64,000 nt of DNA, taken from Escherichia coli (GTDB lineage: Bacteria; Pseudomonadota; Gammaproteobacteria; Enterobacterales; Enterobacteriaceae). A model generated the notes under the pieces. It was not told the origin of the DNA, made no database searches, and saw only the letters and a list, made by a program, of their open reading frames with translations. A program made the position numbers and the translations under genes. The stretch lies in NCBI RefSeq assembly GCF_003790525.1, contig NZ_CP033635.1, one strand, 5' to 3'. Each line of letters opens with the position of its first letter. The stretch's first letter is position 1. This document shows, piece by piece, positions 47,887-48,897 of the stretch.

Positions 47887-47980
47887 TTTCGCTTTAAAAC
47901 ATATCATGAAACTGGGTATGTTTTGTCTGCCTGCTCTGGGATCGCCGGGGCGGGCATTTTTTTGCATGAGACATAACGAA

Positions 47981-48475
47981 CTATTTAAGACATTCCTGCA
48001 AATCAGCCAATGTTGCCATCAGTATCATAGAATCGACAGGCGATGGTTCAAACCCCACTCGCAGATAAAACTCACGGGCCTGGTCTGATAACGCATGGAC
48101 CAACATTCCGCGAATACCAATGACTTCAGCCGCCTGTAGTACTCGTAGACCGGCATCTCTGACCATCGCACGACCGATGCCCTGACCCTGTAATGATTTA
48201 TCTATTGCCAGACGACCAAGTACTACAACAGGGATCGGTTCTGGCATATTTCGGCGAAATCGTCCTGTCGCGACATACGTTTCAACGGCGCTGGAAGCAA
48301 GCGAATAATATGCCAAAACGTTGCTATACGTATCACAGCTAACAAATGTACGTGATGCGCCGGCAAGCTGATTTTTTAGGGCTCTCTGCTTTAGCCAGTT
48401 ATCCATCGTTTCTACTCCCGAGCAAAAAGAGGTGAATTGATGCCTTGCCATGAGTGGCTCGGGGGCCTGAATCAT
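47981..48475 (-). CDS. GNAT-family acetyltransferase toxin (TacT/AtaT/ItaT-like type II toxin)
   Basis: ORF with GNAT acetyl-CoA motif [22 protein letters not shown] and conserved ...REFYLRVGF; preceded by RHH/DUF1778-like ORF; not at this position in K-12 as I recall it; start taken at [11 protein letters not shown] (track ORF begins 5 codons earlier at GTG). Confidence 0.8.
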
Positions 48476-48764
48476 TTTTTTTGCTCCCACGGCGCGGGTG
48501 TTTGCATGGTTTTGCGTAATGCAGCATTGGGCGCGGGGGCTGATCCAGACGATTCAAAAATAGCTGGTAATCATCAGAATCGATCCTGAAAATTCTCTGC
48601 TCAATGAGCGCCTCTTCAGCTGCGGCTCTGGCGGCCTCAAGGACAAATTCGGTGCGATTTTTTCCTCGGGCTTTAGCGGCCCGGTCAATAAGATCGCGTT
48701 CTGCGGGTTTTATGCGCAAGTTTAAAGATTCGCGCCTGGCTGGAATGTTATTGGCTGCTGGCAT
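48399..48764 (-). CDS. DUF1778 (RHH) antitoxin, TacA/AtaR-like; 3' part appears frameshifted so the reading frame overlaps the toxin start by about 75 nt
   Basis: N-terminus [59 protein letters not shown] matches DUF1778 pattern; after LDQPP the frame departs from an alternative frame that ends in a stop overlapping the toxin ATG. Confidence 0.65.
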
Positions 48765-48847
48765 AAATATATCCTTCGGCTTTGCGTGGATGATAATTAT
48801 ACAGCACATGTAACGCTAATGTCATTACAGCAAAGATGCTACCCCTG

Positions 48848-48880
48848 AAATAAAAAAGCCCTGGCAGTTACCAGGGCTTG
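48848..48880 (-). terminator. rho-independent terminator downstream of rne
   Basis: minus strand hairpin gccctggtaactgccagggc followed by T-run ttttttattt. Confidence 0.65.
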
Positions 48881-48897
48881 ATTACTTGAGCTAATTA

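Follow-up and report, generated by a model that had tools for sequence, protein, structure and literature searches.

Toxins of the TacT2-like family have been linked to persister formation in Salmonella. The closest characterised relative of the gene pair described here is TacAT2 of Salmonella enterica (PMC5959882). TacT2 loses its toxicity upon the Y137F substitution, and its residue 29 distinguishes the inactive protein of S. Typhimurium, which has a glutamate (E29), from the active one of S. Enteritidis, which has a lysine (PMC5959882). In vivo, Gly-tRNA(Gly) is almost the sole tRNA acetylated by TacT and TacT2 (PMC9177977). Salmonella TacAT (TacT, 5FVJ / 7AK8) and the other toxins of clade D, which are Gly-tRNA-specific, have the same GNAT fold and a DUF1778 partner, being more distant from the E. 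coli proteins than TacT2. Klebsiella pneumoniae KacAT (5ZGN, 5XUN; PMC6698736) belongs to the same family, and the organization of its antitoxin C-terminus has been described: strand beta-B (residues 52-56) and helix alpha-C (57-70) are followed by a linker with the sequence PPAP (71-74) and by helix alpha-D (75-86), which reaches the acetyl-CoA site. The single substitution R77A in alpha-D abolishes neutralisation, for which the alpha-C residues M65, I68 and Q70 are also needed (PMC6698736). Within E. coli, AtaRT, AtaRT2 (O157:H7) and ItaRT (HS) are likewise GNAT/RHH type II modules that acetylate aminoacyl-tRNA; the AtaRT and AtaRT2 genes of O157:H7 (ECs4308-4307 and ECs4261-4262) occupy other loci than the one reported here (PMC7470980). 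The literature that we searched contained no paper or experiment on the present E. coli pair or locus.

The window, which is the whole stretch of 64,000 nucleotides of E. coli DNA that we analysed, contains the convergent genes flgL (46933-47886, plus strand) and rne (52071-48898, minus strand), which end directly before and directly after a gap of 1,011 bp (47887-48897) that is exactly the intergenic stretch. In K-12 MG1655 the distance between the two genes is only 195 bp. Homology to K-12 stops two bases past the small RNA gene flgO and is found again from 48847 on, shortly before the rne terminator; alignment with K-12 and computation of the boundaries delimit an accessory islet of 881 bp (47966-48846) in place of 64 bp of the K-12 spacer. 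Its GC content is 48.5%, compared with 50.6% for the window, and its minus strand carries a strong sigma-70-like promoter, a TacA/DUF1778 antitoxin gene and a 164-amino-acid GNAT toxin gene. The intrinsic terminator of rne (48850-48879, minus strand), a hairpin at 48879-48856 with a 10-bp stem followed by a T-run, is common to K-12 and lies upstream of the module promoter. A sequence-only reading of this DNA had described two minus-strand genes within about 1 kb between flgL and rne, the antitoxin preceding the toxin, between the rne terminator and the end of flgL. Both peptides that it quoted are found there, the gene order is the one seen in the sequence, and the pair is indeed missing from this site in K-12, as judged from the MG1655 spacer length and the alignment. 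Its description of the K-12 spacer was right as to shortness; the spacer is not simply non-coding, its first 78 nt in MG1655 being annotated as the FlgO small RNA (b4826).

We located FlgO, which derives from the flgL 3'UTR, at 47886-47963 on the plus strand from the K-12 annotation and an alignment with one mismatch. A terminator scan placed its terminator hairpin at 47928-47956, followed by a T-run. The RNA depends on sigma-28, is bound by Hfq and has few known targets (PMC10578931). Its identification comes through the K-12 alignment, since an Rfam scan of 47500-49200 returned only chance-level matches, none of them from a FlgO-named family. The RNA falls inside the range assigned to the module by the sequence-only reading and outside the inserted segment, which begins 2 nt past the FlgO terminator, and FlgO should thus not be counted as part of the insert. 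At the other end of the module, the toxin stop codon is 18 nt from the FlgO 3' end, and a search of 47870-47995 for a minus-strand terminator gave no convincing candidate (fold z-score -0.98); transcripts of the module may therefore read antisense into FlgO and the 3' end of flgL. For islet-positive strains, antisense read-through into FlgO is a speculation.

The toxin gene (47981-48475, minus strand) starts with the ATG at 48475 and encodes 164 amino acids followed by a stop codon, a product identical to RefSeq WP_000613626.1. It contains the toxin peptides quoted previously, among them REFYLRVGF, and matches the Pfam GNAT families Acetyltransf_7, Acetyltransf_10 and Acetyltransf_1. The best match among solved structures is 7AK7_A (E=7.7e-76; 119 of 162 residues identical, 73.5%), followed by TacT (5FVJ / 7AK8, E=3.6e-44 to 3.8e-44) and, more weakly, by KacT (E=4e-20) and AtaT (E about 1e-16). 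In the 7AK7 entry, which corresponds to Salmonella TacT2/TacA2, the acetyltransferase is accompanied by a CopG-family regulator. Assignment to the GNAT acetyltransferases is thus borne out by the Pfam families and the 7AK7_A match, while the signature previously called TacT/AtaT/ItaT can be narrowed: the TacT part stands, with TacT2 as the nearest relative, and the resemblance to AtaT and ItaT is at family level only. The NCBIfam scan matched neither the toxin nor the antitoxin, and among the PADLOC defence-protein models no family reached E<=0.01 for either of them.

The residue numbering of the toxin is that of TacT2; the catalytic Tyr137 is present, as is Lys29, and the acetyl-CoA motif Q96-x-x-G99-x-G101 is intact (family form Q/R-x-x-G-x-G/A). 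The window toxin is predicted to have the activity of a TacT2-like enzyme. A very common allele of the E. coli toxin, found on at least 1000 contigs, carries the substitution G101D at the last glycine of QxxGxG (48175-48173 in the window); it might represent natural attenuation of the toxin. The window toxin has the canonical Gly101, and G101D occurs independently of the antitoxin frameshift described below. We considered whether the frameshift is paired with an inactivating G101D and rejected this, as G101D is common alone, on at least 1000 contigs called as a full 164-amino-acid gene. Toxin genes called at 141 amino acids were likewise discarded as a mark of frameshifted copies, gene callers often picking Met24 anyway.

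The antitoxin open reading frame, as written in the window (48399-48764, minus strand), starts with the ATG at 48764 and encodes 121 amino acids followed by a stop codon. Residues 1-77 are of TacA type and comprise the RHH domain and the equivalents of beta-B and alpha-C, while residues 78-121 are out-of-frame sequence over the first 25 codons of the toxin gene. The antitoxin peptide quoted previously (ESLNLRIK...EQRIF) corresponds to residues 12-59. The protein matches Pfam PF08681 (TacA1, formerly DUF1778) with E=3.9e-22 over model positions 2-67 of 80, in agreement with the RHH/DUF1778-like antitoxin that had been proposed; for the intact antitoxin, the match reaches model position 76 of 80. 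The intact form is 97 amino acids long in E. coli SMS-3-5 (WP_001110446.1), with a C-terminal end in the original frame, and shares 79 of its 97 residues (81%) with 7AK7_C, the TacA2 chain (E=1.4e-45). Its alignment with KacA is free of gaps, with residue numbers shifted by five, which places the PPAP linker at residues 76-79. KacAT is otherwise the more remote model: the PPAP linker is conserved, whereas identity is much lower (toxin E=4e-20, antitoxin E=1.7e-7), and the position of KacA R77 is an alanine in the E. coli antitoxin, so that the detailed contacts differ.

Upstream of the antitoxin gene we identified a sigma-70-type promoter on the minus strand (48796-48825; ATGACA, 18 nt, TATAAT) that matches the consensus at 11 of 12 positions. 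It is overlapped by two 5-nt inverted repeats and one 7-nt direct repeat, which are weak operator candidates; the half-sites of the two short palindromes, both on the minus strand, are TGTAA (48829-48825) with TTACA (48813-48809) and TAATG (48827-48823) with CATTA (48821-48817). A Shine-Dalgarno sequence, AAGGA (48772-48776, minus strand), lies 7 nt upstream of the antitoxin ATG, and a Shine-Dalgarno-like GGGAG (48484-48488, minus strand) precedes the toxin ATG by 8 nt. Once the frame is repaired, and likewise in intact copies, the antitoxin stop codon TGA (48474-48472) overlaps the toxin start codon as ATGA; in the window as written this becomes an out-of-frame overlap of 77 nt. The bicistronic order with the antitoxin first and a promoter of its own is hence present, with the stop/start overlap confined to the repaired or intact frame.

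Taken together, similarity to both partners and the anatomy of the operon suggest that the islet very probably carries a type II toxin-antitoxin operon of the GNAT/RHH (TacAT) family that corresponds, on the E. coli chromosome, to Salmonella tacAT2. Comparison with the TacAT, KacAT and AtaRT families had been proposed as a check, and it places Salmonella TacT2/TacA2 nearest and AtaT far lower. The two systems share residue numbering, Y137 and K29, and the order antitoxin then toxin. They differ in their surroundings, since the one Salmonella-derived copy that we inspected adjoins rtsB, an AraC-family regulator gene and fimbrial genes, whereas the E. coli copy is at flgL-rne, and also in that the antitoxin is frameshifted in the window. 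The proposal of a type II GNAT/DUF1778 module is thus upheld by homology and operon anatomy, with the amendment that the module is not intact as written.

By homology with the Salmonella and Klebsiella systems, the sigma-70 promoter would drive the antitoxin and then the toxin, the two genes being translationally coupled through the ATGA overlap. With acetyl-CoA as its substrate, the toxin would acetylate charged tRNA on the alpha-amino group and thereby stall translation; in view of the nearly exclusive preference of TacT and TacT2 for Gly-tRNA(Gly) in vivo, this tRNA is the most probable target. The antitoxin is expected to dimerise and to bind the operator through its N-terminal ribbon-helix-helix domain, resulting in autorepression, while its C-terminal strand and two helices would wrap around the toxin and block both the acetyl-CoA site and toxin dimerisation. 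For toxicity, tRNA target and neutralisation alike, the prediction comes from proteins 74-81% identical to those of the window.

To assess how widespread the islet is, we used the 881-bp segment as query against 5,426 complete E. coli genomes. It occurs in 686 of them, once each, with at least 80% coverage in 685 (12.6%, about one in eight) and at least 99% identity in 681 of the 686 matching genomes. A comparison of the flgL-rne spacer across strains, which had also been called for, thus finds the islet in a minority of complete genomes and not in K-12. In these genomes every copy is on the chromosome and none on a true plasmid, and all 30 of the copies listed sit between flgL and rne. Strain HS-02 (NZ_CP172818.1) retains only a partial remnant (27% of 880 bp) with just the GNAT gene annotated, apparently following an internal deletion of the module. 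We ruled out a plasmid origin: plasmid matches at 100% were found only in records of 730 kb and 4.9 Mb, which are mislabelled chromosome. Relatives at 60-80% identity are present in 94 plasmid records, and more distant ones in thousands of plasmids, mostly from Klebsiella. A scan of genome contigs with the toxin yielded 49 relatives, which share 30-71% identity with it and come from alpha-, beta- and gamma-proteobacteria, with no representative from E. coli or Salmonella; those at 60-71% identity are scattered across the same three classes. PGAP annotates the pair as 'GNAT family N-acetyltransferase' and either 'DUF1778 domain-containing protein' or 'type II toxin-antitoxin system TacA family antitoxin'. 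The family and the locus are therefore already known, being catalogued and named by NCBI as a TacA-family antitoxin with a GNAT acetyltransferase, and the module is ordinary, neither rare nor new. It is a strain-variable toxin-antitoxin islet that sets many avian and extra-intestinal E. coli lineages apart from K-12-like strains, and its importance is mostly a matter of correct annotation. What our analysis adds to the sequence-only reading is the frameshifted antitoxin, of uncertain reality, and the presence of FlgO inside the range of the proposed module.

The frameshift results from one base. Compared with E. coli SMS-3-5, the whole gap is identical except for a run of cytosines on the coding strand, which has five residues in the window (48535-48539, minus strand; G5 on the plus strand) and six in the intact copies examined. 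The frame changes after Pro77, within the PPAP linker, and the product continues through 44 out-of-frame residues to a stop codon at 48399, which lies 77 nt into the toxin gene. The RHH domain, beta-B and alpha-C are therefore kept, while alpha-D and the tail are lost. By analogy with KacA, a real deletion should leave operator binding in place and weaken neutralisation. Ribosomes on the extended open reading frame would cross the toxin ribosome-binding site and its first 25 codons, probably altering toxin translation; this disturbance, together with the repression that the RHH domain may still exert at the promoter, may then limit the damage.

The five-cytosine context was found in two of the 685 complete genomes, 2015C-4136CT1 and E686, in both of which PGAP marks the gene as 'frameshifted', and is absent from the remaining 683. 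In the wider public collection, the exact 121-amino-acid product occurs on 11-17 contigs, and a version with A9T is indexed in 93 blocks. Copies with five cytosines are spread over at least seven haplotypes on unrelated backgrounds; the allele is thus homoplasic and restricted to the tips, not inherited as a lineage trait. As to the window itself, positions 1-47831 differ from strain 702/18 by five substitutions and no gap, and positions 40000-64000 match 702/18 and at least nine other strains with one length difference of 1 base. The deletion in the cytosine run is the sole indel in 64 kb relative to the nearest genomes, and the A8 and T7 runs nearby are intact, which argues that the source is not a generally indel-prone assembly. 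The toxin and the promoter beside the frameshifted antitoxin are wild type.

Two observations on public contigs concern neighbouring homopolymers. Five contigs of different haplotypes have a T7 to T6 deletion in the flgL T7 run (47212), splitting flgL into products of 216 and 101 amino acids; that this deletion is shared raises the suspicion of systematic homopolymer errors in part of the public data. On 29 contigs, the longest of 4.9 Mb, a 260-amino-acid antitoxin-toxin 'fusion' arises from the C6 to C5 change plus a second deletion, A8 to A7, which sits at the antitoxin-toxin junction and predicts an in-frame fusion to the full toxin. This fusion is probably a long-read homopolymer artefact.

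One reading, to which we give an even chance or slightly more, is that the frameshift is a genuine recent mutation, which would leave a decaying or crippled toxin-antitoxin locus whose antitoxin is without its last toxin-binding helix. Being the only indel in 64 kb speaks for it, as do the retention of the RHH domain and of the alpha-C equivalent, and the overlap of the shifted frame with the toxin ribosome-binding site and first 25 codons. The cell could possibly tolerate such an allele, as the RHH domain would still repress the promoter, alpha-C would still bind the toxin and read-through would lower toxin synthesis. The tip-restricted, homoplasic pattern also fits a recurrent, short-lived and mildly deleterious mutation. 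Against this, the R77A substitution of a single alpha-D residue in KacA is already enough to abolish neutralisation, there is no compensating change in toxin or promoter, and a wild-type toxin beside a broken antitoxin is unexpected if neutralisation had truly been lost for long. A real frameshift would make the strain a natural experiment on how large a part of a TacA antitoxin is required to restrain the toxin.

The same observations can be read as a sequencing or assembly error in a strain that truly carries an intact, fully functional tacAT-like module, as 683 of the 685 genomes do, an explanation that we regard as plausible while falling somewhat short of probable. The difference is a single base within a G/C homopolymer, it is scattered over many unrelated haplotypes instead of being inherited, the toxin and promoter are untouched, and only 0.3% of the complete genomes have it. 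Moreover, several contigs with five cytosines carry further homopolymer deletions (flgL T7 to T6 in five backgrounds, A8 to A7 on 29 contigs). An error is harder to reconcile with the rest of the window, where comparison with the nearest relative shows no other indel over 64 kb and both the A8 and the T7 run have their full length, with the completely clean flanks of many other contigs that have five cytosines, and with the retention of the allele in two RefSeq complete genomes. Under either a genuine mutation or an error, the window antitoxin should be flagged as frameshifted (pseudogene or error) and not called as a protein of 121 or 136 amino acids.

We consider it very unlikely that the six-cytosine tract is a genuine slippage hot spot, yielding time and again, in independent events, an active Gly-tRNA-acetylating toxin together with an antitoxin that represses and poorly neutralises or, as a related possibility, that unterminated tacAT transcription running antisense into FlgO alters FlgO in the 12.6% of strains that carry the islet. 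If true, the hot spot would generate slow-growing or tolerant variants in a way that is inherited but does not last long.

It is very unlikely, too, that the GNAT protein does not arrest growth in E. coli and is instead a benign acetyltransferase, acting for example on the antitoxin or on other proteins in a regulator-enzyme cassette: the non-toxic TacT2 of S. Typhimurium (E29), the abundance of G101D (at least 1000 contigs), a hint that the constraint on activity is relaxed, and the reported acetylation of a protein by AtaT (PMC7957018) would agree with it, but the window copy has K29, Y137 and an intact QxxGxG, a proven toxin and its proven antitoxin share 74% and 81% identity with the two proteins, and the overlapping-gene architecture is typical of type II modules.

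Two further observations concern other loci. The rne gene lacks 12 bp (four codons) near 49132, in the part encoding the C-terminal half, and its product has 1057 amino acids versus 1061; these 12 bp are kept in most of the other islet-carrying loci examined and in rne genes of K-12 length. This is an in-frame length polymorphism of the scaffold region. In the near-identical genome of strain 702/18, a gene for a DUF2726-domain protein adjoins a tRNA-Ser gene between ghrA and phoH, the equivalent region of the window being at about 3720-4590, and may be another small accessory insertion.
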